Positions 40,368 to 59,265 of a DNA stretch of 64,000 bases are shown piece by piece; position 1 is the stretch's first letter; the number at the start of each line of letters is the position of its first letter. Made by a program: the position numbers and the translations under genes. The stretch is from Planctomycetota bacterium (lineage in GTDB: Bacteria; Planctomycetota; UBA1135; UBA2386), in assembly GCA_965223545.1 (NCBI GenBank), contig OZ245006.1, positions 5,536,001 to 5,600,000 of the forward strand, in the 5' to 3' direction. Below the pieces are notes generated by a model. It worked only from the letters and a program-made list of their open reading frames with translations. It was not told the origin of the DNA and ran no database searches.

Positions 40368-42113
40368 ATGTCCGCCCACCTGTGTCCCTGGTTCCGGGCC
40401 CTGGTCGTTTTCGTCGCCGCCGCCGCCGCGCCGGTCGCGCCCGCGCAACCCGGGCGCGCCGACGGAGGGCAGCGGACCAGGGAGGCGCCGATGATGACCG
40501 GCGCGGCGCGCACCGGGATGCGCACCACCCCAGTTTGGACCGTTGGCGAAGAGCACCGCGGCCGCGACGTCAACCTGCGGCGTTACGGCCACCGCTACGT
40601 CGGCAAGCCCGATGGAATCGGCGCCTTCGCGGTCGATGCGCGCACGGTGCGCGTGCTGAGCACTCACGAGCTCTTGGACGGAACGGGGTACCCCTACACC
40701 CTGGCCAACGGGGTGCAGCTGCGCGGTGCGCGCATCAGCTTCACCGACGTCCATCGCCGCACGCGCAAGGCGCGCGCCGGCGGCATGGCCTACCACACCA
40801 TCTACGACCGAGCCGGCGCCCCGGTGACCGATCCAGCGCAGCTGCACGAGGGGTGGAGCGCGTTCGTCGACGGCGGTCTCGATCGCCTGTGCTCCGCGGT
40901 TTGGCGCGCGGCGGGCGTCCACGGCCTGCGCGACGACGTGTTCTTCGCCGGTGAGGAGGCGGCGGAGTTCGGTCTGACTCCGGCGCAGGGCCATGGCGGT
41001 CAGCTGTTCGCCCTCGACCCGCGCGCCGGTGTCCTGTACGCGGCGCCGATGCTCGGTCGCGCGGCGTTCGAGAACGTCGCGCTGCTCGCGAACCACGGCA
41101 CCGACAAGGTGGTGGTCGCCATCGCCGATGACCGCGCTGCCGCGCCGCTCTATCTGTACGTGGGTGAGCGCGACGCCGCGCCTGCCGGCAGCTACTCACC
41201 GCCCAGCTTTCTGCGTCGCAACGGCCTGGGGATGGGGCGCCTGTTCGTGTGGGTGGCGGACAACGGCGCGGTCACGCCGGAGATGTTCAACGGCACCGGC
41301 GCCGCGGTGAACGGCCGGTTCGTGCCGGTGCGCGGCTTCGACCCCGTGTTCGCCGGGGCGCCGGGATACGACGGGCTGGGGTTCGCCTCGATGGCGGCGC
41401 TGGATGCGCAGGCGACCGCCGCCGGCGCGTTTCGCTTCTCGCGGCCGGAGGACATCGCCACGGATCCCGCCGACGGCACGCGGGCGGTGTTCGCGTCGAC
41501 CGGCAACGGCGCGTTGTTCCCGGCCGACAACTGGGGGACCACCTACATCGTCGATCTCGACGACCGCTCGCTGCGCAGCAGCTTGCGGCTGCCGTTGGCG
41601 CAGATCGGCGCGCTCGGCGCCCGCTTGTCGATCCTCTACGACGGCGACGACGCGGGCGGCGGGCAGTTCGTCCACCCCGATGCCGGGCTGCGCAGTCCGG
41701 ACAATCTCGACTGGGCCGCGGATGGGGCGGTCTACGTGCAGGAGGATCGGGCGACGGCGCCGCGCACGCTGTTCGGCAGCGTCAGCGGGGTCGAGGCGTC
41801 GCTCTGGCGGTTGGACCCCATCACCGGCGCCGCGGTGCGGGTCGCGGTCGTCGACCGCGCCGCCGTGCCGACCGGGCAGACCGACCAGTTCGCCGGCGTG
41901 CTGGGCACGTGGGAATCGACGGGAGTCGTGGATGTCGGCCACTTGTTCACCACCGCCCCCGGGGAGCGGCTGCTCCTGTTGCATGTCCAGGCGCACGGCC
42001 TGACCAGTCCGGCGGGCGTCGGGTTGGCGCGGGGCGGAGTACAGGCCACGGATCTGTTCGGCGGTGGCCAGCTCTTGTTCGCCTCCAGCAGTCGCGGCGC
42101 GGGGCGTCGATGA
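40368..42113 (+). CDS. PhoX/DUF839-like secreted phosphatase
   Basis: Signal peptide; PDGIG, HEL, RLCSA, GRAAFENV, RPED, SPDNL, VQED, WESTG. Confidence 0.8.
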   Translation: MSAHLCPWFRALVVFVAAAAAPVAPAQPGRADGGQRTREAPMMTGAARTGMRTTPVWTVGEEHRGRDVNLRRYGHRYVGKPDGIGAFAVDARTVRVLSTHELLDGTGYPYTLANGVQLRGARISFTDVHRRTRKARAGGMAYHTIYDRAGAPVTDPAQLHEGWSAFVDGGLDRLCSAVWRAAGVHGLRDDVFFAGEEAAEFGLTPAQGHGGQLFALDPRAGVLYAAPMLGRAAFENVALLANHGTDKVVVAIADDRAAAPLYLYVGERDAAPAGSYSPPSFLRRNGLGMGRLFVWVADNGAVTPEMFNGTGAAVNGRFVPVRGFDPVFAGAPGYDGLGFASMAALDAQATAAGAFRFSRPEDIATDPADGTRAVFASTGNGALFPADNWGTTYIVDLDDRSLRSSLRLPLAQIGALGARLSILYDGDDAGGGQFVHPDAGLRSPDNLDWAADGAVYVQEDRATAPRTLFGSVSGVEASLWRLDPITGAAVRVAVVDRAAVPTGQTDQFAGVLGTWESTGVVDVGHLFTTAPGERLLLLHVQAHGLTSPAGVGLARGGVQATDLFGGGQLLFASSSRGAGRR

Positions 42114-43762
42114 GCCTCCGGCGCCACGAATCGTCGAGCGGCGACAACATTCTCGAGGCGTCGTCGCCGCCTTGGCAGCGACGCTGCCGCGCCGGAGGCT
42201 CGGAGAGACAGTGCCTCCGGGCTCAGCGCGGCGGCGGATGTGTCGGGCCTTCCAAGCCGCTCCGGCAAAAGCGGCATCCGAGTTTGGTTGCGGCCGTGGC
42301 CGCGCTGAGCCTCCGGCGCCACGAATCGTCGAGCGGCGACAACATTCTCGAGGCGTCGTCGCCGCCTTGGCAACGTCGCCGCCGCGCCGGAGGCTCGGAG
42401 AGACAGTGCCTCCGGGCTCAGCGCGGCGGCGGATGTGTCAGGCCTTCCAAGCCGCTCCGGAAAAAGCGGCATCCGAGTTTGGTTGCGGCCGTGGCCGCGC
42501 TGAGCCTCCGGCGCCACGAATCGTCGAGCGGCGACAACATTCTCGAGGCGTCGTCGCCGCCTTGGCAACGTCGCCGCCGCGCCGGAGGCTCGGAGAGACA
42601 GTGCCTCCTGGCTCAGTGCGGCGGCGGATGTGTCGGGCCTTCCAAGCCGCTCCGGCAAAAGCGGCATCCGAGTTTGGTTGCGGCCGTGGCCGCGCTGAGC
42701 CTCCGGCGGCGGGGCGAGACCCCGGGGCGGTGGCCCCTGCTGTTGGCCGGCGCGCTGATCCTGCCGTGGTGGCTGTCGCCGGGATCGGTGGCGGCGGCTG
42801 GCGAGCGCGTGCGCGGAGTGACGATCTCGACGCACGGCAGCGGCCGCGACTGGGGCCACGACGTGATCGTGCCGACGATCGCCGAGATCCGGTCGATCGG
42901 CGCCGGCTGGGTCGCCACCCATCCGTACGCGCGGATCGGCGCGGATGGGAGTGTGCGTTTTGCCGACTTCGCCGACGGCGAGCCACCGGAGTACCTGGTG
43001 CGGCCGATCCGCGAAGCCCACGCGCAGGGGATGAAGATCTTGATCAAGCCGCACCTGGCCTACTGGGGGTCGCCGTTCGCGTGGCGGGGTGAGATCGAGT
43101 TCGACGCCGAGCAGGCCTGGCAGCGGTTCTTCGCCGACTACGAGCGCTGGATCGTCAAGCTGGCGCGCGCCTGTCGCGCGGCCGACGCGTTTGCGGTCGG
43201 CACCGAGCTCGATCGCACCGTGCATCGCGAGGCCCGCTGGCGCGCGATCATCGACCGAGTGCGCGCGGCGACGCCGGCGCCGCTGACCTACGCGGCAAAC
43301 TGGACCGACTACCGGCGGGTGCCGTTCTGGGACGCGGTCGACGCGATCGGCATCCAGGCCTACTTTCCGCTGGCCGAGCGGGCCGCGCCCTCGCGCCAGC
43401 AGCTGCGCGATGGCTGGGCCCGGCTGATGACCGGACTGCGCGCCTACTCCGTCGCGCGCGGCCGCCACATCGTGTTCACCGAGCTCGGCTACAACCGGTC
43501 GCACCAGGCACCGGTGCGGCCCTGGGAGGCGCATTCCGACGGCGCCGACGCAGAGGCGATCCAGCTCGCGTGTTTGGCGACTGCGCTGGAGGCGATCGAG
43601 CGCGAGCCGCGCGTCGTCGGTGCGTTCTTGTGGAAGTGGTTCCCCGGCGAATACGGCCGGCGCGGTAACTTCCGCGTCGACGCGCCCGCGGTGCGCGCCC
43701 TCATCGCGCGCCACTGGCGGCCGCTGCAGCGTGCCCGGGTCAGCCCTCGATCAGACCGATGA
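42110..43762 (+). CDS. Glycoside hydrolase family 113-like TIM barrel; first 195 codons are repeat-derived, so the true start is uncertain
   Basis: KILIKPHL, WRGEI, VGTEL, TYAANW, GIQAYFPL, FTELGY, GAFLWKW; signal-like segment follows the repeats. Confidence 0.82.
   Translation: MSLRRHESSSGDNILEASSPPWQRRCRAGGSERQCLRAQRGGGCVGPSKPLRQKRHPSLVAAVAALSLRRHESSSGDNILEASSPPWQRRRRAGGSERQCLRAQRGGGCVRPSKPLRKKRHPSLVAAVAALSLRRHESSSGDNILEASSPPWQRRRRAGGSERQCLLAQCGGGCVGPSKPLRQKRHPSLVAAVAALSLRRRGETPGRWPLLLAGALILPWWLSPGSVAAAGERVRGVTISTHGSGRDWGHDVIVPTIAEIRSIGAGWVATHPYARIGADGSVRFADFADGEPPEYLVRPIREAHAQGMKILIKPHLAYWGSPFAWRGEIEFDAEQAWQRFFADYERWIVKLARACRAADAFAVGTELDRTVHREARWRAIIDRVRAATPAPLTYAANWTDYRRVPFWDAVDAIGIQAYFPLAERAAPSRQQLRDGWARLMTGLRAYSVARGRHIVFTELGYNRSHQAPVRPWEAHSDGADAEAIQLACLATALEAIEREPRVVGAFLWKWFPGEYGRRGNFRVDAPAVRALIARHWRPLQRARVSPRSDR
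42111..42708 (+). repeat. Tandem array of three near-identical 195-bp palindromic units plus a 13-bp partial copy
   Basis: TGAGCCTCCGGCG recurs at 42111, 42306, 42501 and 42696; units end GTTTGGTTGCGGCCGTGGCCGCGC. Confidence 0.97.
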
Positions 43763-47998: not shown

Positions 47999-50112
<2,114 letters not shown>

Positions 50113-50116
<4 letters not shown>

Positions 50117-51993
50117 GAGTGCAGCTCCTGCAGCAGCGCTACGACGTCGCATCCCTCGTGCGCGAACAGGACGCCGTCGAGGTCCGGCGCCGGTGCGCCG
50201 GCGACGACCAGCGCCGGCGGGTTCGCGCGGTCGGCGGTGGCGGCGCGCGCGGCGCGCACGGCGTCGGCGCGCTCGTCGTCGTCGCAGCACAAGCCGATGA
50301 CCGTGGCGTCGGCGGGAACCGGCATTCCCGAGGTGAGCTCGACCACCTCGAAGTCTCCGGCGGTCAGCAAGTCGCGCAACCAGTCGGCCCGCGCGCGCGC
50401 CCGGCCACCGGTGCCCGGCGGCATCAGCGCGGCGGTTGGCGGGGCCTTCGTCCGGAGTTGCTCGAACGCGTGCACGTCGGTGTGCGCCGCTGGCCGCAGG
50501 GGTTCGGCCGGCAAGTCGGAGCGCGCGACCGAGGCCGCCAGTGACACCTCGGCTGCGGCCGCGGCCGCCGCGCGCTCCGCGTGCCGCCGCGCGCGCTCCG
50601 CGTCGGTGGGGGCCGCGGGGCGCGGGCCCTCGAGCGACGGCGCGGCGAAGCGACTGATGCCGACCCGCACCCGGCGCCGGCTGCGGTAGTCGTCGTCGCG
50701 CGCGCGTCGATGCTCGGCAACTCGCGCCTCGAGCCAGGCGATGGCCGCCGCGCTGCCGAGTCCGCCACGCGTCTCGAGTGCGCGGAGGGTCTGCCAGGCC
50801 GAGTCGGCGATCTCCTCGGTCAGCGCCTCGATCGCGAACGCGCCAGCCAGCGGGTCGTCGACCTTGTCGAGGAAGGCTTCTTCTCGCAGCAGGGCGTGCT
50901 GGTGCAGCGCGCGGGCTCTGGCCGCGGCATCCACGCGGTCGAGGTCGCTCTCGTCGGGCGGCAGAACGAGCGCGTCGGCGCCGCCGCACACCGCCGCCGT
51001 CGCCGCGATCGCGGTGCGCAGCAAATTGGTGCGAGGGTCCGGGCCGGCGAGCGCCCGCCGGCTGGTGGTCGCGCAGACGAAGGGGGTGCGCGCGGATTCC
51101 GGTAGCGCGAACGCCCGCGCCACTGCCGTCCAGCCGAGGCGCAGGGCGCGCAGCTTGGCGACCTCGGTCAGCAGGTCGGTGCCGACCGCGCACCGGGCCG
51201 TCATCCGCGCCGCGACCTCGGCGGGCGCGATCGCGCCGTCGGGCACAGCGCGCAGCGCGGCCGCGGCGCTGGCCAAGACCACCCCGATCTCGAGCGCCGG
51301 CCCCGCGCCGGCGTCGTGGATCGGCGTGCCGTCGGCGCACAGCGCCCGGCTCTCGGCAGACAGCGCGCGGCACCGGCGCACGGCAGCGCGTGCCACGCGC
51401 CAATGCGCCGCGTCCGTCGGACGCAAGCCGTCGGCCGGCGCGAACACGGCCTCGATCCTCAGGCGGGAGGGATCGATGCCGCGCGCCCGCGCCAGGTCGA
51501 CGACGGCCGCGTGCAGCTCCGCCGCGGCCACTCCACCGTCGATGGCGATGCCGACCGCGGCCAGGTCGACACCGCGCAGCACGACGTCCAGCTCGTCGAT
51601 GTCGCCGAGCGAGAGTCCGCCGGCGCCGGCAAGTGGCGCGGCGGCGTCGAGGGCGGCCACCGGGTCCTGGCCCGCCCGTCCGTGCGCATCCAGGCGCAGC
51701 TCCAAGAAATCCGCACCGCCCTCGACGGCGTCCCCAACCCAGGTTTCAGCCGCACCCGGCTCGGGTGCCGCGATCAAAGCTCGCACCTGCCAACCAGCGC
51801 GCGCGCGCGGCGGCGGCCGGGGGGTCGGAGGCCGTTCGGAGTGCAGGGCGCGCAGCGTCAGACCCGGCTCCAGCGGGCCCTGTGCGGCGTCGACACCGTT
51901 CTCGCCGAGGGTTTGTGCCGCCGCAATGCACCACGCCTCGCGGGTCGCGGGCTCGAACGCGGGGCCTGGCCCGAAGCCGGGTTGGTCTGGCAT
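50113..51993 (-). CDS. mutA: Methylmalonyl-CoA mutase small (non-catalytic) subunit
   Basis: [46 protein letters not shown]; no DxHxxG. Confidence 0.9.
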
Positions 51994-52190
51994 CGCGTGC
52001 ACTCTACCCGCCCGGGTGCTCAGACAAGTCGTACAAACGTAGTGCAGACAACACCCTACACGCAGTGGTGGTCCGATCGTGATGCGGGCTGGTCCGGGGT
52101 TGCGCGCGCCGGCACAGCCGTAGGCTCTGCATGAAGAGTGCGTGAAGAAGCTGCTCCCACTGTCACGCCTGACACACGCGATCAATCACG

Positions 52191-55100
52191 ATGATGTTGG
52201 GCATTCCGTCACCTGATGTACTGGTCAGCTTGGCGGCCAGCGTGGCGCAAGGGGCTGCGCTGGTCGCGGTGATTGCCGGCCGAGTGCTGCTGGGGCGCCG
52301 CGAGAGCGCGTCCGACGACGACCCCGAGGCGGGCAAGGGCGGTGCCAGGCTCGCCGCTTGGGGCTTCGGCATCGCGTTCGCGGCGACCGCCGTCGGCTTC
52401 GTCGTCTACCACTCGAGCGTGGTCGACGCCCGCCAGCGCAGGCTGTCCACCAACCTGTACCGCAGCTCGACCGAAGCGGGGGTGGCGGTGGGCGATACGT
52501 CGCTCAAGACGCTCGGTTTCAGCGCCCAGAACGCCCATCCACGCGGCTTCGACAGCCAAGATCTCGCTGCGCGACTGGCCAGTGGAACCCCTCCGCCCCT
52601 CTTCGACGTGCGGGAGCCCGAGGAGACCGAGGCCGGCGTCATCGCCGGCAGTGTTCACCACCGCTACCCGGATCTGTTGCGCGACCGCTCGGTGCTGACG
52701 GCCGCGGCGGGCACTCCGGTCTTGGTGTGCTACTCCGGCAACCGCAGCTCCGAGCTCGCCGACACGTTTGCCGAACAGGGCATCGAGTGCCGCTTCTTGA
52801 TCGGCGGCTACGAGAAGTGGTTGGCCGAGGGGCGGCCGCTGGTGGGCGGGGTCGAGCGCAGCAGCCTGCGCGCGCTGCCGGAGTTCCCCAACCGGGACAC
52901 GTTGCTCGATACCCCCGAGGTGCAAGAGCTCGCCGAAGCGGGCGACCTGGTCCTCGTCGATGTGCGCTACCCGGAGGACCTGCGCGCGCACGCGCTGCCC
53001 GGCGTGCACAACATCACCCTCCGGCGGCTGACCACGCCCGAGGTGGAGACCGCGCTCCGCGGCCTGCCCGAAGGGCCCGTGGTCGCCGTTTGCTACGACA
53101 AGCGCGGTTCGTTCTACGGCCAGATCCTCGGCCTGCGCATGCACCGCATGGGGCGTGACTTCCGCGGTCGCTACACGGTGCCGCACGAGTACTGGCGACC
53201 GGTCGCCGCGCGGGCGCACGTCGCCGCTTGGCAGGAGGCGCAGCGGGCGCGGAGCTTGCTCGATCTGGTGCGCGAGCCGTTGGCGGCAGCGCTGACCTGG
53301 CTGCGCGATTGGCTGCCGGCCGCGTCGCTGGTCGGCGCGATCGCGTTGCTCGTGCTCGCGCTGCGGCTGGTCATGTTGCCGTTGACCTGGAAGGCGGACG
53401 TCGATCAGCGGGTGCGGGAGGACTTGGCGCCGCGCCTGGCCGCGCTGCGGGCGCGGCTGGCCGACGAGCCGGCGCGGCGCACCCGCGCGCTGCTGGCGGC
53501 CCAGCGCGACGCCGGCCTGACCCCGTTGCGCAACTTCTTGGGCACGTTGGCCATCGTCGTGCTGTTCTTGGTCATGTTCGGCGTCGTCGACGCCGAGGCG
53601 GCGGCGCGCCCGGACGGGTTTGCCTGGATGGCGGATTTGCGACAGCCCGACCCGTGGCTCGCGGTCGTGGTCGGCGGGCTGAGCGCGGCGGTGCTCGCAG
53701 TGAAGATGCGGTTCCGCAGGCCGTGGATCGGCGTCCTCGTCGGCGCGGCCTTCTGTGCGTTGTTGGTGTGGATCTGCCTGCAGTGCAGCGCGGCGGTCAG
53801 CATCTACCTGATCATCAACTTGGCGTTGGTGCTGCTACTGGAGGGCGCGGTTCGGTGGTGGTGGCGGCGGCGCCATCCGCCGCGCCCCGCGGTGCGCGCG
53901 GCAGTCGAGCTGCCGGCCAATGGCCTGTTGCCGCTGCGGGACGCCGCCGCGCTCGGCGCCGCCGGCGGCAAGGCGCGGCGGTTGGGTGAGCTCGTCCAAC
54001 TCGGGCTGCCGGTGCCCGACGGCTTCGTGCTGCTGGACGATGCGGCGGGGGCGGACGAAGTGCTCGCCGCGTTCGACCGGCTCGGCTGCGACGAGGTCGC
54101 GGTGCGCAGCTCCGGCGTCGACGAGGACGGCGCCGAACACAGCTTTGCCGGCGTGTTCGACACCGAGCTGCACGTCGGCCGCGCGCAGCTGCTGGCCGCC
54201 GTCGAGCGAGTGCGCGGCTCCGCGATGTCGGCGCGGGCGACCGCGTACGCCGGGCAGCAGACGGCGGCGATTCCGGTGCTCGTGCAGGCGATGGTGCCCG
54301 CCGAGCGGGCCGGCGTGCTCTTCACCGAGGACCCGACCTGTACGGGACTGGCCTGTGTCGAGATGATCGACGGCGTCGGCGAGGATCTGGTCAGTGGCCG
54401 TAGGACGCCCAAGACGCTGCGCTTCGGTCGGCTGAGCGGGCGTTGCCTCGACGGGGCGCCGCCGATGGATCTGGGTCCACTGTTGGCGTTGGGGGCGCGG
54501 CTCGAACGGCACTTCGGCGGCCCGCAGGACGTCGAGTGGGCTTGGGTTGGCGGCGAGTACCGGCTGCTGCAGGCGAGGGACATCACCGTGCGCGCCACGG
54601 GGGCGGATTCGCCGGCCGCGCGCCTCGAAGGCGAGCGCCGCCGGTTGATGGACCGTTGGCTCGATGACCGGCGAGAGCCGGATGCGGCGCTGCTCGAGCA
54701 GGACGAGCTGGCCGAGCTGCTGCCCCGACCGACCGCCTACAGTGCCGAGCTGATGGAGGCGCTGTGGGCGGTGGACGGCAGCGTCGATCGCGCCGGCCGG
54801 GCGCTGGGGGTTCCGTACGAAGTGCGCGAGGACAGCCCGAGCTACACCGTGACCGCGTTCGGCCGCACCTTCGTCGACGTGGCTGAGCGCGAGCGCCGGC
54901 GGGGCGCCGGCTTGCCCGCGCGCACCGCCTTCCGGCTCACGCTGCGGCTCGAGCGTCTCGAGCGGAGTGCGCGCGGCTGGCTCGGCCGCTTCGAGCAGGC
55001 CGCCGTGCGGCGGGCAGCGATCGATGCCGGCCGGTTGCCGCTCGCCGAACTGCTGTCGATGCTGAGCGAGACGAGAGCTCGGTTCGTGGCCGAGTCGTAT

Positions 55101-56462
55101 GCGCGGGCGGAGCAGATCAACATCTTGGCCGATGCGGCGGTGCGCCAGGCCCGCACCCGACTGGGCCGCGCCGGTCTCGATGCGGCCGAGCACCTCGGTG
55201 CCCCCGTGGAGCACACCGTGGTGCACCGCGCGTGGCAGCGGCTCGGCGATCGGGACTGCTCGGTCGAGGACGCGGTCGCTGGCTTTCTGGCGGAGTTCGC
55301 GCACCGCGCGCCGCACGATTTCGAGCTGTCGGCCCCGCGCTACGGCGAGCAGCCGGAGCGCATGGCGCGCTACGTCGAGCGGTTGCGGCGGGTCAAGGAG
55401 GATGCCGGCGCTCCCGTCGATGTCCCCGCCGATGTCCCCGCCGATGCCGGTGGCGGGTCGGCGGGCACCAGTGATGCCGAACGCGTCCGCCTGCCGCGCA
55501 CAGCCGCGCTCTGTGTCGAGCGCGCACAGCGCTGGCAGGAGCTCAAGGAGGCCGCGAAGCACGCGTGCCTGCGCGAGGTCTCGCTGTTGCGGTCGCTGCT
55601 CTTGGAGCTTGGCGAGCGCACCGGCTTGCAAGAAGCGGTCTTCGACCTGCGCAGCGACGAGCTCGCGCGGCTCGATGACCCAGCCGCGGTCGCCGACCTC
55701 CTGCGCGAGGCGCAGCAGCGGGCCGCGGCCCGGCGGGAGTGGGCCGCGCTCGAGCTGCCCCCCGTCATCACCGCGGCCGAGCTCGAGGTCGTGGGCTCAC
55801 CACTCGCGGCGGCGGCGCCGTCGGCCGAGCGGGACGGCGCGCTGGCCGGGGCGCGGGTCGCGGGCAGCGGCGATGTCGTCGGCACGGTGCGCTGCATGGC
55901 GGAGGGCGATCCACACGACGCGCTGCGGCCGGGCGAGATCCTCGTCACTCGGTGTACGGATCCGGAGTGGAGCCCGTTGTTCGCCGTCGCCGGTGGCATC
56001 GTCACCGAGATCGGCGGCTGGCTGAGCCACGCCGCGATCTTGGCGCGCGAGTGCGGGCTGCCGGCGATCGTCGGTGCCGTCGGCGCCAGCCAGCGGCTGC
56101 GCACCGGTGATGTCGTCCGGCTCGGCATCGATGGTGGGATCGAGGTCCTGCAGGAACGCCGCGCGGCACCGCGGGTGGCGGTCGACGAAAAGGTCTGGCT
56201 GCGCTGGGCTGGCGGCGCGCGCGTCGGCGCCCGCCTGCTCAACGCGAGCCGCGCAGGGCTGCGCGTGCGCGTGCCCAAGGGCGCGCCGCCGTTGGGTGCC
56301 GAGGTCGTCGTCGACTGGGGTGCCGCCGACGGCCTGCGCGGGCAGGTCGCTTCCAACGGAGTCTGTGACGAGGCGGGTTTGGCCATCGAGCCCTGCGCGG
56401 CGCTGGAGCGACAGCTCGACCGGTCACGGCGTTTGGCGGAGGCCCGGCGCCGCGGCGGTTGA
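52191..56462 (+). CDS. Fusion protein: two rhodanese domains + YidC/Oxa1-like membrane domain + PEP-synthase-type ATP-grasp and phospho-His domains + PilZ
   Basis: DVREPEE/CYSGNRS; DVRYP/CYDKR; LRLVMLPL...WMADLRQPDP; GGKA, VRSS, SFAG, QDVEW, QAR; GGWLSHAAILARE; RRAAPR...NASRAG. Confidence 0.85.
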   Translation: MMLGIPSPDVLVSLAASVAQGAALVAVIAGRVLLGRRESASDDDPEAGKGGARLAAWGFGIAFAATAVGFVVYHSSVVDARQRRLSTNLYRSSTEAGVAVGDTSLKTLGFSAQNAHPRGFDSQDLAARLASGTPPPLFDVREPEETEAGVIAGSVHHRYPDLLRDRSVLTAAAGTPVLVCYSGNRSSELADTFAEQGIECRFLIGGYEKWLAEGRPLVGGVERSSLRALPEFPNRDTLLDTPEVQELAEAGDLVLVDVRYPEDLRAHALPGVHNITLRRLTTPEVETALRGLPEGPVVAVCYDKRGSFYGQILGLRMHRMGRDFRGRYTVPHEYWRPVAARAHVAAWQEAQRARSLLDLVREPLAAALTWLRDWLPAASLVGAIALLVLALRLVMLPLTWKADVDQRVREDLAPRLAALRARLADEPARRTRALLAAQRDAGLTPLRNFLGTLAIVVLFLVMFGVVDAEAAARPDGFAWMADLRQPDPWLAVVVGGLSAAVLAVKMRFRRPWIGVLVGAAFCALLVWICLQCSAAVSIYLIINLALVLLLEGAVRWWWRRRHPPRPAVRAAVELPANGLLPLRDAAALGAAGGKARRLGELVQLGLPVPDGFVLLDDAAGADEVLAAFDRLGCDEVAVRSSGVDEDGAEHSFAGVFDTELHVGRAQLLAAVERVRGSAMSARATAYAGQQTAAIPVLVQAMVPAERAGVLFTEDPTCTGLACVEMIDGVGEDLVSGRRTPKTLRFGRLSGRCLDGAPPMDLGPLLALGARLERHFGGPQDVEWAWVGGEYRLLQARDITVRATGADSPAARLEGERRRLMDRWLDDRREPDAALLEQDELAELLPRPTAYSAELMEALWAVDGSVDRAGRALGVPYEVREDSPSYTVTAFGRTFVDVAERERRRGAGLPARTAFRLTLRLERLERSARGWLGRFEQAAVRRAAIDAGRLPLAELLSMLSETRARFVAESYARAEQINILADAAVRQARTRLGRAGLDAAEHLGAPVEHTVVHRAWQRLGDRDCSVEDAVAGFLAEFAHRAPHDFELSAPRYGEQPERMARYVERLRRVKEDAGAPVDVPADVPADAGGGSAGTSDAERVRLPRTAALCVERAQRWQELKEAAKHACLREVSLLRSLLLELGERTGLQEAVFDLRSDELARLDDPAAVADLLREAQQRAAARREWAALELPPVITAAELEVVGSPLAAAAPSAERDGALAGARVAGSGDVVGTVRCMAEGDPHDALRPGEILVTRCTDPEWSPLFAVAGGIVTEIGGWLSHAAILARECGLPAIVGAVGASQRLRTGDVVRLGIDGGIEVLQERRAAPRVAVDEKVWLRWAGGARVGARLLNASRAGLRVRVPKGAPPLGAEVVVDWGAADGLRGQVASNGVCDEAGLAIEPCAALERQLDRSRRLAEARRRGG

Positions 56463-56474
56463 GGGGTTTGGCGG

Positions 56475-57200
56475 CTACCGGCGGCTCTCTCGAGCGAGCC
56501 TCCTCTGCACGGCGCCGCTCTGGAGTTCCCGCAGGGCGTGAGTGCCGATCCACCGGCAAGTCGAGTGCTCGACTTTGGCCAGGCGCTGCGCGGTCTCGAT
56601 CGCGGCGCCGTTGAGCGCGCGGTTGCGCTTGCCGATCGCGCGGAGTGCCATGTTCACCGCCTTCTTGACGAAGTGGCGGTCATCGTGGGCTTCGGCCACG
56701 ATCAACTTCAGGCCATCGCGAAACTGCTTGTCGGGGGCTTCCTTGTCGTGGACGGACAGCGCCCAGAGCAGGGCGAACGCCCCGCGCTTCTTGAACTCGG
56801 GCTTTGCCTTCGCCCATTGCGGCACTCTTCCCCAAGCGTGTGCGGTCCGGTCGAACAACTGAAAGCACAGCGTGTCGACCAGCGCCCAGTTGTCGCAGGC
56901 GGAGATCCACGCGTTCATCTGGCCGACGGTCACCTGCACGGGTTCGTCGACCAGCGTCGCGAGCAACCTCGCTTCGTAGCGTCCGGTGGCCCAGAGCTCT
57001 TGGCCAAGCTCGTGGCTCTTCCCGATCTCTTTGGCGTACTTCCTGAGATCACCCATGGACACCCCGAACGGCCGGGTGGCGGTGATGCCGTAGCGGTCGA
57101 GTTCTTTGGCTTGCTGCTTCGTGCCACGTCGCTCGAGCCAACCGAGCGCCTCTTTGACGGTGACCGTGGCGGTCGCGCTACCTTTCCTTCGAGTGCTCAT
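56475..57200 (-). CDS. AlkD-like DNA alkylation repair protein
   Basis: FGVSMGDLR, LWATGRYEARLLA, DNWALVD, DDRHFVKKAVNMALRAIGKRN. Confidence 0.9.
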   Translation of the reverse strand: MSTRRKGSATATVTVKEALGWLERRGTKQQAKELDRYGITATRPFGVSMGDLRKYAKEIGKSHELGQELWATGRYEARLLATLVDEPVQVTVGQMNAWISACDNWALVDTLCFQLFDRTAHAWGRVPQWAKAKPEFKKRGAFALLWALSVHDKEAPDKQFRDGLKLIVAEAHDDRHFVKKAVNMALRAIGKRNRALNGAAIETAQRLAKVEHSTCRWIGTHALRELQSGAVQRRLARESRR

Positions 57201-57316
57201 GGCTTCGGCGGCCCGGTTTTAGTCGTTTCTTTGGCTGTTCGACAACGTTCGAGCACCGCTGCTTGCCGCTCGGCGGCGCTTCGCCGATCATCGCCGCCCG
57301 TCGCTCTGCGTCGCGA

Positions 57317-57646
57317 TGAGCCTCAGGGTCCGCAAATCTTCGCGCGGCGACAACCTTTCGAAAGGCTCGATGCCGCTGAAACTTCGACAACGCAGCTCCC
57401 GGAGGCTCGAAGACAACACTGGCCTCCGGGCTCAGCGCGGCCGCCGGCGACCGCGGGACCCACGACCGACGCTCGGGTCGCGGAATGCTCCGTGTTTGGT
57501 TGCGGCCTCGGCCGCGCTGAGCCTCAGGGTCCGCAAATCTTCGCGCGGCGACAACCTTTCGGAAGGCTCGATGCCGCTGGAACTTCGACAACGCAGCTCC
57601 CGGAGGCTCAAAGACAACACTGGCCTCTGCGCTCAGCGCGGCCGCC
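57317..57646 (+). repeat. Second array of the same repeat family: one 201-bp unit plus about 130 bp of a second
   Basis: TGAGCCTCAGGG at 57317 and 57518; shares GCGGCGACAAC, CCGGAGGCTC, GCTCAGCGCGGC and GTTTGGTTGCGGCC-NN-GGCCGCGC with the 42 kb units. Confidence 0.93.
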
Positions 57647-57762: not shown

Positions 57763-59265
57763 TCAGGACTCTTCCACAAGACCAGGGAAGTGTTCTTGCA
57801 TGAGATCACCGATCGGGTGAGGTTGACGTGGGGATTCCACGGCCAGGCCTGTGGCGTCCATTGGGCGGCCACTCAAGTCCCTCGTCGTCGGAGTCCCCAC
57901 TCGTCCCTGTCGCCGTTGGTCGCGCTCATGCCGCTGTGGCGCGACGATGCTGCGCGTGAACTTGGCTGCGATGAGCGCGCGCGCGGCAACCTTCGTGAGC
58001 TCGTTGCCGTCGGCGTCTCGCAGGACGTAGCGGACTTGCGTCGACGCCGGCTTGTCATCGGCGCGCTGGCTGTCGCGACGCTTCAGGAGGGCGTAGACGC
58101 GGCGCGCCATCTTGCCAGCCAATGCGATGAGGATGAGGTTGTGGTGATCACCTGCGGCGTAGCGGCGAGCGTAGTACGCCGCGAAATCCGGATCCCACTG
58201 GCGAGCGACGTCAGCTGCTAGGTAGAGGTACTTCTTGAGTACTCGTTGGCCGGTTTTGGTGATTGGCATCGAGGGGTCGCTCATGCCCGTCTGCTTCCGG
58301 CGTGGACACAGTCCGCAGTAGCTCACGAACTTCTTGCCGTTCGAGAACCGCGCGATGTCGCCTACCAAGGCTTCGATGGCCGCAGCGATCGTGGGACCGA
58401 CGCCGCGCAGTTGCTCGAGTGTTCGGTCAGGATCGACGCCCAGGTAGAGCTTCTTGATCTTTGCGTCGAGCTTGCGAACGTCCGTGTTCTTGCGCTCGAT
58501 CTCATCCAGCTCGTACACCACATCCTCTTGGATGGCCTCGTAGTCGAACGGCATCTGCCCCGCAGCTCGCAGCTCAGCGTAGTACTCGGCGGCCTGTCGG
58601 CAGGACTCGAGCACGCGGTCGACCAAGCACGGGTCATGCGTTCCCTTGGATCGCTTCGTCAAGAAGCGCTCCAAGCGACTCTTCCCAAGGCCGACCGCTT
58701 TCACCGGATCGACGTAGCGCCGCAGAAACCCCATCTTAGCGGCACTGAACTTCTCTGCCCCCAAGGCCTTCATGAGGCTGGGATTCGCCAGTACCAGTAT
58801 CGCGTGCACACGACGCTTGTGGTCGCTGAGCTCGCGCGCCAACCGCTCACGCCGCTTCACGAGTCGACGGATCGTCGTCTCGTCGGCAGTTGGAACACGC
58901 AGCTGGTGGACGCCCTTTGGATCCATCTGCGGCAGACGCGCAGCGGCCTCGGCGTCTACTACGTCGGTTTTGGTGTGCTTGCTATAGAACTTCCGCAGGT
59001 CGCTCAGCTTCTGTGGTTTGCTCACGTAGATCTGGAACCCTGCGGCGTTCACGTGCGCCGCGATGGGCAGCCACGCCAACCCCGTTGGTTCCATCACGAA
59101 GCTCACCGGACCCTCGGCACCTTCCTGTGCACGGCGCAGCAGAAGGTCAATACCCTCACGGCTGTTCTCGACTGAAAACGGTCTGCCCCGAGACTTCGCA
59201 CCATCCAGAACGACGGCTCGGTGCTTGCTCCTCAAGCCGAGATCCAATCCAACGAATCGATTCAT
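57763..59265 (-). CDS. IS110-family transposase/recombinase
   Basis: GLDLG, MEPTG, KTDVVD (DEDD); LRGVGP, GDIARF, YCGLCP...QTG, ITKTG, ALAGKMAR; GGAGGGG RBS. Confidence 0.96.
   Translation of the reverse strand: MNRFVGLDLGLRSKHRAVVLDGAKSRGRPFSVENSREGIDLLLRRAQEGAEGPVSFVMEPTGLAWLPIAAHVNAAGFQIYVSKPQKLSDLRKFYSKHTKTDVVDAEAAARLPQMDPKGVHQLRVPTADETTIRRLVKRRERLARELSDHKRRVHAILVLANPSLMKALGAEKFSAAKMGFLRRYVDPVKAVGLGKSRLERFLTKRSKGTHDPCLVDRVLESCRQAAEYYAELRAAGQMPFDYEAIQEDVVYELDEIERKNTDVRKLDAKIKKLYLGVDPDRTLEQLRGVGPTIAAAIEALVGDIARFSNGKKFVSYCGLCPRRKQTGMSDPSMPITKTGQRVLKKYLYLAADVARQWDPDFAAYYARRYAAGDHHNLILIALAGKMARRVYALLKRRDSQRADDKPASTQVRYVLRDADGNELTKVAARALIAAKFTRSIVAPQRHERDQRRQGRVGTPTTRDLSGRPMDATGLAVESPRQPHPIGDLMQEHFPGLVEES

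Follow-up and report, generated by a model that had tools for sequence, protein, structure and literature searches.

The DNA analyzed here is a 64,000-nucleotide stretch, referred to as the window, from a Planctomycetota bacterium (GenBank assembly GCA_965223545.1, contig OZ245006.1, positions 5,536,001 to 5,600,000 of the forward strand). At 52191–56462 on the plus strand, it carries one uninterrupted open reading frame for a 1423-residue protein (P0001), in which two rhodanese domains, a YidC core, a dikinase of the rifampin phosphotransferase (RPH) type, and a PilZ-fold domain are fused. An earlier note, made from the letters of the DNA, had described this frame; it read through as a single frame, with support from Pfam and homologs. 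The motifs named in that note were located at 52728 (CYSGNRS), 53091 (CYDKR), 53364 (RLVMLPL), and 53625 (WMADLRQPDP), and, in the C-terminal half, at 56028 (the catalytic His codon), 56157 (RxxxR), and 56241 (NxSxxG). We know of no counterpart to this fusion architecture. Comparisons across genomes and structural models suggest that the fusion, a solute-binding protein (SBP), and a membrane sensor form an undescribed chemical signaling system.

The N-terminal half was modeled with a pLDDT (predicted local distance difference test) score of 88.5. Two membrane helices (about residues 10–28 and 55–74; 52218–52412, plus strand, as are all domains below) flank a basic cytoplasmic loop, as expected from the two hydrophobic segments recognized previously; the bounds of the second helix come from both the sequence and the model. 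The two rhodanese repeats were also recovered by Pfam (58.3 bits; cut-off 22.2), each with its Cys. The first (52557–52826), assigned from Pfam, a structure match, and conservation, contains the loop C180-x-S/N-G-N-R-S and is predicted to be periplasmic, while the second (52896–53195, bounds approximate), assigned from Pfam, the model, and conservation, has the shorter loop C301-Y-D-K/R-R. In the structure search of this model, a rhodanese domain matched 3gk5 (Z = 15.9; root-mean-square deviation (rmsd) 1.6), and the nearest folds include sulfurtransferases and persulfide enzymes. The pair is arranged unlike the solved tandem rhodaneses (rmsd 12–16).

The YidC/Oxa1 core, delimited by structure match and alignment at 53226–53888, comprises an amphipathic helix, five transmembrane helices, a cytoplasmic hairpin, and the groove arginine R392. 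The Pfam family 60KD_IMP matched residues 383–546 (55.9 bits; cut-off 35), and the model matched the YidC structures 3wo7 (Z = 17.0; rmsd 5.0; 211 residues aligned) and 6al2 (Z = 16.8), bearing out the YidC-like block of the earlier note. R392 aligns with R366 of E. coli YidC, and the equivalents of Q429 and Y517 are also present. The fusion missed the cut-off of the NCBIfam YidC model TIGR03592 (53.9 versus 84.3 bits), and its isolated YidC piece gave no NCBIfam YidC match at E ≤ 1. The membrane core is, in the model, a YidC fold, for which an insertase role is at most predicted.

The C-terminal half (pLDDT 90.7) begins with an ATP-grasp domain at 53916–54581 (K594, R639; Pfam PPDK_N, 119.9 bits, cut-off 27; structure match). 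It is followed by a central acceptor-binding domain (54618–55790, bounds approximate), defined by alignment to RPH, in which K1119-E1120-x-x-K1123 aligns with RPH R666/E667/K670, so that a Lys stands for Arg666. The swivelling phospho-His domain (55833–56153), supported by a structure match, carries H1280 (Pfam PEP-utilizers, 72.7 bits, cut-off 23.1). The model matched RPH (5hv1) with an E value of 5.8e-28 and with the catalytic residues aligned, in line with the phosphotransferase layout proposed earlier. In RPH, the swivelling His relays the ATP β-phosphate to a small acceptor, and AMP and Pi are set free. R666 and E667 of RPH are required for the second phosphotransfer (PMC4844700). The order ATP-grasp, acceptor, swivel-His domain is RPH-like, and the C-terminal pyruvate-binding barrel, a hallmark of phosphoenolpyruvate (PEP) synthase and pyruvate phosphate dikinase, was not found in the C-half model. 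The scores fell below the equivalog cut-offs for Rph (173 versus 999 and 127.6 versus 1700 bits) and PEP synthase (160 versus 740 bits). On these alignments and the model, the dikinase part is assigned to the RPH-like superfamily, and neither to Rph nor to PEP synthase.

A PilZ-fold domain (56154–56450) follows the His domain. Its fold matched 4i86 (Z = 11.9; rmsd 2.2; 87 residues aligned), and both motifs of the earlier PilZ assignment were present; Pfam PilZ itself scored below its cut-off (12.9 bits; E = 0.15). With the barrel, RxxxR, and D/NxSxxG features of cyclic di-GMP receptors, the domain is a putative cyclic di-GMP binder.

The fusion is not an artificial join of unrelated genes: all 120 listed homologs contained rhodanese, YidC, PPDK_N, and PEP-utilizer matches. 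Two runs of a single sample each yielded a contig that covers the stretch with zero differences; this sample is possibly the source itself and not independent. Neither a sigma-70 promoter nor a terminator was found 5' of the fusion within the window.

Family conservation and predicted topology

The search for the same architecture in other genomes revealed a conserved family. Among 8000 candidates scored, 165 homologs of similar length were obtained at the 90% level. At the 50% level, 145 representatives matched the N-terminal half (E ≤ 1e-30), nearly all full-length or fragments. A set of 132 new matches to this half comprised 69 full-length proteins, 53 classed as fragments, two of which are mere multi-rhodanese proteins, and 10 odd forms, mostly with frameshift-like tails and one with an EAL-like end; no alternative fusion partner recurred among the 132. 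Named carriers are Planctomycetota, the cyanobacterium Lusitaniella, and roseobacters, and the gene is present on 82 plasmid records, 59 from Phaeobacter. A genome scan with the single protein yielded four full-length loci in 80 kept, the remainder being generic dikinases, and the nearest stand-alone dikinase (L005) had no informative neighbor genes. An Atlas look-up returned only Rph_4th and Phosphonate-bd clusters.

Residue conservation was counted over 189 homologs, each of at least 1200 residues. The rhodanese residues C180 (188), C301 (176), and R185 (all 189), the groove residues R392 (188) and Y539 (184), the ATP-grasp residues K594 (187) and R639 (188), the acceptor-domain residues K1119 (187), E1120 (182), and K1123 (181), and the swivel H1280 (186) were retained throughout the family. 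This conservation across modules indicates that all of them are under selection. A second Cys six residues past C301 (residues 301–307 in P0001 numbering) occurs in 90 of the 189 homologs, always together with C301, and the two could form a periplasmic disulfide. A C-terminal tail of more than 70 residues was found in 98 of the 189, both PilZ motifs in 53, and an added GAF or PAS domain in the tail of some. Cyclic di-GMP control, which the earlier note had proposed as possible, is therefore not part of the core system.

Three features argue for rhodaneses outside the cell membrane, with the dikinase and PilZ domains inside. First, in 102 of 120 homologs with a long N-terminus, a conserved IPSP start is preceded by a hydrophobic segment that closes with an AxA-type site; this start is preceded by a cleavable signal peptide in many homologs, not in the window copy. 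Second, the loop behind the first helix is basic (mean 4.3 K+R versus 0.4 D+E). Third, the rhodaneses sit ahead of the amphipathic helix of the YidC core, a position equivalent to that of the YidC periplasmic domain (PMC7618853). This predicted topology supports the outside location suggested before. The genome also contains two further, ordinary YidC genes with periplasmic-domain matches, so the fusion is not the housekeeping insertase. The second of these YidCs lies within an open frame of 950 residues, whose N-terminal region is unusually long (L110:9644-12493; G000:C1:5123643-5126492).

The solute-binding protein and sensor partners

The examination of gene neighbors in other genomes, which the earlier note had proposed, identified partners that lie outside the window. 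At loci other than that of the window, the fusion adjoins a PtxB/PhnD-like SBP (PF12974) and a membrane sensor. The sensor is mostly HAMP-HisKA, with or without a receiver, once a methyl-accepting chemotaxis protein (MCP; L123) and once PAS-GGDEF-EAL (L120). The three genes are usually adjacent, in tandem, divergent, or convergent layouts. In a phylum sample of 401 genomes, the fusion was found in 14 and the SBP in 20, including all 14, and the partners were adjacent in 10 of the 14. Within the Tritonibacter scottomollicae family, the fusion occurred in 4 and the SBP in 5 of 251 genomes, with all 4 shared. Among 41 relatives, the fusion occurred in 15 and the SBP, at E ≤ 1e-40, in 13; in the two relatives missed at this threshold, the fusion has a divergent SBP and kinase as immediate neighbors. 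The SBP was thus present in every fusion-bearing genome examined (14/14, 4/4, and 15/15). Of 24 genomes from the family to which the window belongs, 11 had both genes and 13 neither. The receptor occurs without the enzyme (an SBP-kinase pair alone in 6/20 and 1/5 genomes), and the enzyme without the receptor was not seen among the whole genomes examined. Five of the six SBP-only phylum genomes were searched with the fusion C-half, which gave weak generic matches in two only. The SBP matched 83 plasmid records; counted by genus, they agree with those of the fusion except for one more, without pairing of individual records. These data suggest that the SBP and sensor are the fusion's partners in a three-gene system.

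Fisher tests on the co-occurrence overstate it, with kinship uncorrected. The correlation between SBP and fusion identity matrices (Spearman 0.62; 23 pairs) was explained by kinship and was not used, and a complex prediction for the SBP with the N-terminal half (score 0.00) was counted neither for nor against. In the loci read, we noticed no ABC permease in a conserved spot beside the SBP, no recurrent downstream catabolic gene, and no DNA-binding response regulator as a conserved neighbor. The SBP was also absent from the available DNA of metagenome contigs L113, L115, L116, L117, L118, L121, and L122. In two genomes of one family (loci L196 and L100), SBP and kinase stand in this order between a presumed DNA polymerase I-like gene, ahead of the SBP, and a presumed NUDIX-like gene; the fusion follows the kinase in one and is lacking in the other, a gain or loss in place.

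The nearest solved relatives of the SBP are PtxB proteins (ligand residues as named in PMC5700983). Equivalents of PtxB Y55, Y100, S130, T131, and H160 are kept. The cap Y208, which selects phosphite in PtxB, is a Lys in 116 of 120 SBPs, and S132 is replaced by Ile, giving S-T-I instead of S-T-S in 119 of 120; the PtxB hallmark (Tyr cap and S-T-S motif) is thus missing from the SBP. The Lys cap is also present in both divergent copies. R94, R158, and R183 add charge in most SBPs, R158 and R183 being lost in the two divergent copies. The PhnD cut-offs were missed (TIGR03431, 112.8 versus 261.1; TIGR01098, 98.4 versus 112.05), and the SBP is far nearer to PtxB/PhnD than to TtrS (E 1e-30 versus 0.12). 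The cap position varies with the ligand tail (PMC12718374), and PhnD-like domains sense thiosulfate and tetrathionate (PMC5408782) as well as arsenite (PMC8050422). Since Lys replaces the Tyr cap, we infer from the aligned pocket a ligand with a three-oxygen head on sulfur or phosphorus and an anionic fourth group.

In Phaeobacter inhibens DSM 17395, a marine model bacterium, the trio consists of PGA1_262p02280 (fusion, 37% over 1294 residues, no PilZ match), PGA1_262p02270 (SBP), and PGA1_262p02260 (kinase). Supplement file 4 of a CtrA study (PMC12363192) lists arrayed transposon mutants, seven of the fusion gene and four of the kinase gene, indicating that neither gene is essential. In the portions of that study available, S3A and S5 are the only tables with these tags, suggesting that the mutants still swim. 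According to table S5, the trio is expressed (log counts per million (logCPM) 5.8–7.3), and in the ctrA/cckA/chpT mutants the log2 fold changes were −0.64/−0.59/−0.52 for the fusion, −1.04/−1.02/−0.93 for the SBP, and −0.62/−0.65/−0.64 for the kinase (false discovery rate (FDR) < 1e-5). The six genes flanking the trio had an FDR of 1 in the ctrA and cckA mutants, and one of the flanking genes, a zinc transporter, was up in the chpT mutant. CtrA-box searches gave no exact TTAA-N7-TTAA site; sites with one mismatch occurred in 6 of 12 AT-rich intergenic regions, with no shuffle control, which is a lead only.

The neighbors of the fusion in the window are not conserved; by Pfam, they include a methylmalonyl-CoA mutase subunit, a DNA alkylation repair protein, and IS110. 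The methylmalonyl-CoA mutase genes (47999–52185, minus strand; the nearer one Pfam-confirmed) are upstream of and divergent from the fusion, and the IS110-family transposase (57763–59265, minus strand) lies 1.3 kb 3' of it. Three tandem copies of a 195-bp unit (97% identity) were found between two genes at 42111–42708, and a similar-looking repeat at about 57180–57600 was seen in open reading frame translations only. At another locus (L189:15132-17998), beside a second PhnD-like gene cluster of the genome concerned, two nearby open reading frames have similar starts, which we take to be reverse-transcriptase-like.

Proposed function and rival explanations

We tentatively favor, at somewhat less than an even chance, that the fusion is the enzyme that produces or converts a signal outside the cytoplasm, a sulfur or phosphorus oxyanion, which the SBP-sensor pair would read. 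At the inner face of the membrane, the dikinase would phosphorylate an acceptor that is small and probably amphipathic; the Arg-lined YidC groove would pass the anionic head of this acceptor or couple the two membrane sides; and the rhodanese Cys would complete or turn over an oxyanion with three oxygens and an anionic fourth group, such as a thiosulfate-like, thiophosphate, or phosphate-ester anion. Binding of this oxyanion by the SBP would set the kinase, MCP, or cyclase output and thereby motile versus attached life, with PilZ, GAF, or PAS tails as optional feedback. This reading is favored because the receptor occurs alone, one output can take the place of another, and the loci share no nearby transporter or catabolic gene. 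Also in its favor, the YidC groove has been tied to lipid scrambling (PMC11997395). By analogy, a receptor without enzyme, and not the reverse, matches the synthase/receptor asymmetry of signaling systems. A more specific form is rather unlikely: an Oxa1-family groove co-opted as the exporter of a membrane-spanning synthase, in which ATP-to-AMP phosphotransfer and periplasmic sulfur transfer would yield a new sulfur-phosphorus (e.g., thiophosphate-type) signal, read by the Lys-capped SBP and common to roseobacters, planctomycetes, and cyanobacteria.

Several points weigh against the signal model. The YidC groove is open to the cytoplasm and the lipid but closed toward the periplasm, which would keep a soluble anion from passing directly, and the window copy has Ile and Leu at the family Gln positions 455 and 550, a loss of two groove glutamines. 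In the window's genome, the same SBP (G000:C1:3194036-3194926) and a hybrid kinase lie 2.4 Mb from the fusion, and the partners are non-adjacent in 4 of the 14 fusion genomes of the phylum. Metagenome contig L122 has no SBP within 16 kb of the fusion; there, a histidine-phosphatase-family protein and a His kinase (L122:3758-6108) stand 5' of it in the usual place of the SBP, a single case. The co-occurrence counts involve related, non-independent, and often incomplete genomes (G000 and G004 recur between samples) and carry no direction, so that producing and consuming the ligand fit equally. The CtrA-relay effect is small, at most about two-fold, yet specific to the trio.

The same co-occurrence data would fit uptake and trapping, which is possible, although on the unlikely side: much as AioX-AioS detects arsenite, the SBP-sensor pair would detect an environmental sulfur or phosphorus oxyanion, which the fusion would modify outside, import, and trap by phosphorylation, a group translocation like that of the phosphotransferase system built on a YidC core. 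SBP-kinase pairs often control adjacent utilization genes (PMC8050422), and in close relatives the fusion, SBP, and kinase lie in one strand run. The lack of a recurrent catabolic gene or conserved response regulator in the loci read speaks against it, as do the MCP and GGDEF-EAL outputs and the expression of the trio and its dependence on CtrA (PMC12363192).

Sulfur sensing by the fusion itself appears unlikely. Thiosulfate or sulfane sulfur would persulfidate the periplasmic rhodaneses, the YidC core would only transmit, and the dikinase would make an intracellular phosphorylated messenger; in parallel, the SBP-kinase pair would respond to this sulfur anion as well. The near-invariant C180 in a loop of sulfurtransferase length and the nearest rhodanese folds agree with this, PhnD-like thiosulfate sensors exist, and a sulfane anion would go well with the Lys cap. 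However, the groove Arg and Tyr are more conserved than a plain transducer requires, the SBP is far from TtrS, and a sulfur-oxidation-like cluster was found beside one locus only. That cluster (L175:15397-20371), 3' of the fusion, contains genes presumed to encode persulfide dioxygenase, sulfide:quinone oxidoreductase, and SulP, with a cyanate-like transporter 5' of the fusion; both are single cases.

We consider it quite improbable that the fusion is a dedicated insertase or chaperone, in which the enzyme domains would regulate insertion or control, by the YidC core, of the partner sensor or of the fusion's own N-terminal helices. The full YidC fold with its R366, Q429, and Y517 equivalents would permit this, E. 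coli offers a precedent in YibN, a protein with a rhodanese domain that partners YidC (PMC11997395), and dependence of the sensor would account for the linkage; yet the genome has two ordinary YidCs, SBP-kinase pairs occur without the fusion, the YibN rhodanese is cytosolic, and a conserved small-molecule dikinase would have no role in insertion. An antibiotic-inactivating kinase (for rifamycin or tropodithietic acid, TDA) or PEP synthase, per database names, is very improbable: although RPH is the best structural match and the 262-kb Phaeobacter replicon carrying the fusion also holds the TDA cluster, the scores are far under the equivalog cut-offs, the domain order is RPH-like without a pyruvate barrel, the family spans Planctomycetota and a cyanobacterium, the gene is far from the tda tags (00800–00980), and distant RPH clades retain the Arg-Glu-Lys motif without rifampin specificity (PMC4844700).

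Comparison with known systems

Targeted literature searches, with most subscription papers outside their reach, found no publication on the fusion or the trio. Those found naming the P. inhibens trio tags concern the neighboring pipecolate oxidase, and the tags were not found in the supplements of PMC4436071, PMC13381886, PMC5421792, and PMC10984933, one scanned file excepted. With the SBP and sensor as partners, a fusion that had lacked an explanation becomes part of a defined system of three genes. If the signal model is true, it would also provide a substrate class for one branch of the RPH-like dikinases, which are so far unassigned. An Oxa1-family core kept intact, with enzyme domains on either side of the membrane, would put the fold to a new use; to our knowledge, such cores are known only as insertases and scramblases.

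LuxS/LuxPQ and NspS-MbaA are sets of synthase, SBP, and sensor with lifestyle outputs, in which the receptor occurs without the enzyme and not the reverse, as in the trio. The fusion differs in spanning the membrane and in being a predicted ATP-to-AMP phosphotransferase; no homology to them was seen, none having been searched for. AioX-AioS and the PhnD-domain sensors ThsS/TtrS likewise combine a PF12974 binding protein with a membrane His kinase, whereas the pocket of the trio's SBP is distinct in its Lys cap, S-T-I motif, and extra Arg, its outputs can replace one another, and it is linked to the fusion instead of an oxidase or reductase operon.

The RPH-like dikinases RPH-Lm, PigC/RedH, and HpeHI share with the fusion the domain order and the conserved catalytic Lys, Arg, Glu-x-x-Lys, and His. 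In contrast to them, the fusion has Lys for RPH Arg666, scores far under every equivalog cut-off, and is membrane-anchored behind a YidC core with outside rhodaneses. The YidC/Oxa1/Alb3 proteins, such as E. coli YidC and B. halodurans YidC2, have the same five-helix core, amphipathic helix, cytoplasmic hairpin, and groove Arg. In the fusion, however, the rhodanese pair occupies the place of the P1 domain and an 860-residue enzyme is C-terminal; its distribution is patchy, it is accessory to two ordinary YidCs, and a homolog tolerates transposons. A rhodanese-fold domain physically tied to YidC is also found in E. coli YibN-YidC; YibN is a protein of its own that crosses the membrane once and has its rhodanese in the cytosol (PMC11997395), whereas the two rhodaneses of the fusion are part of the same chain and predicted to lie outside.

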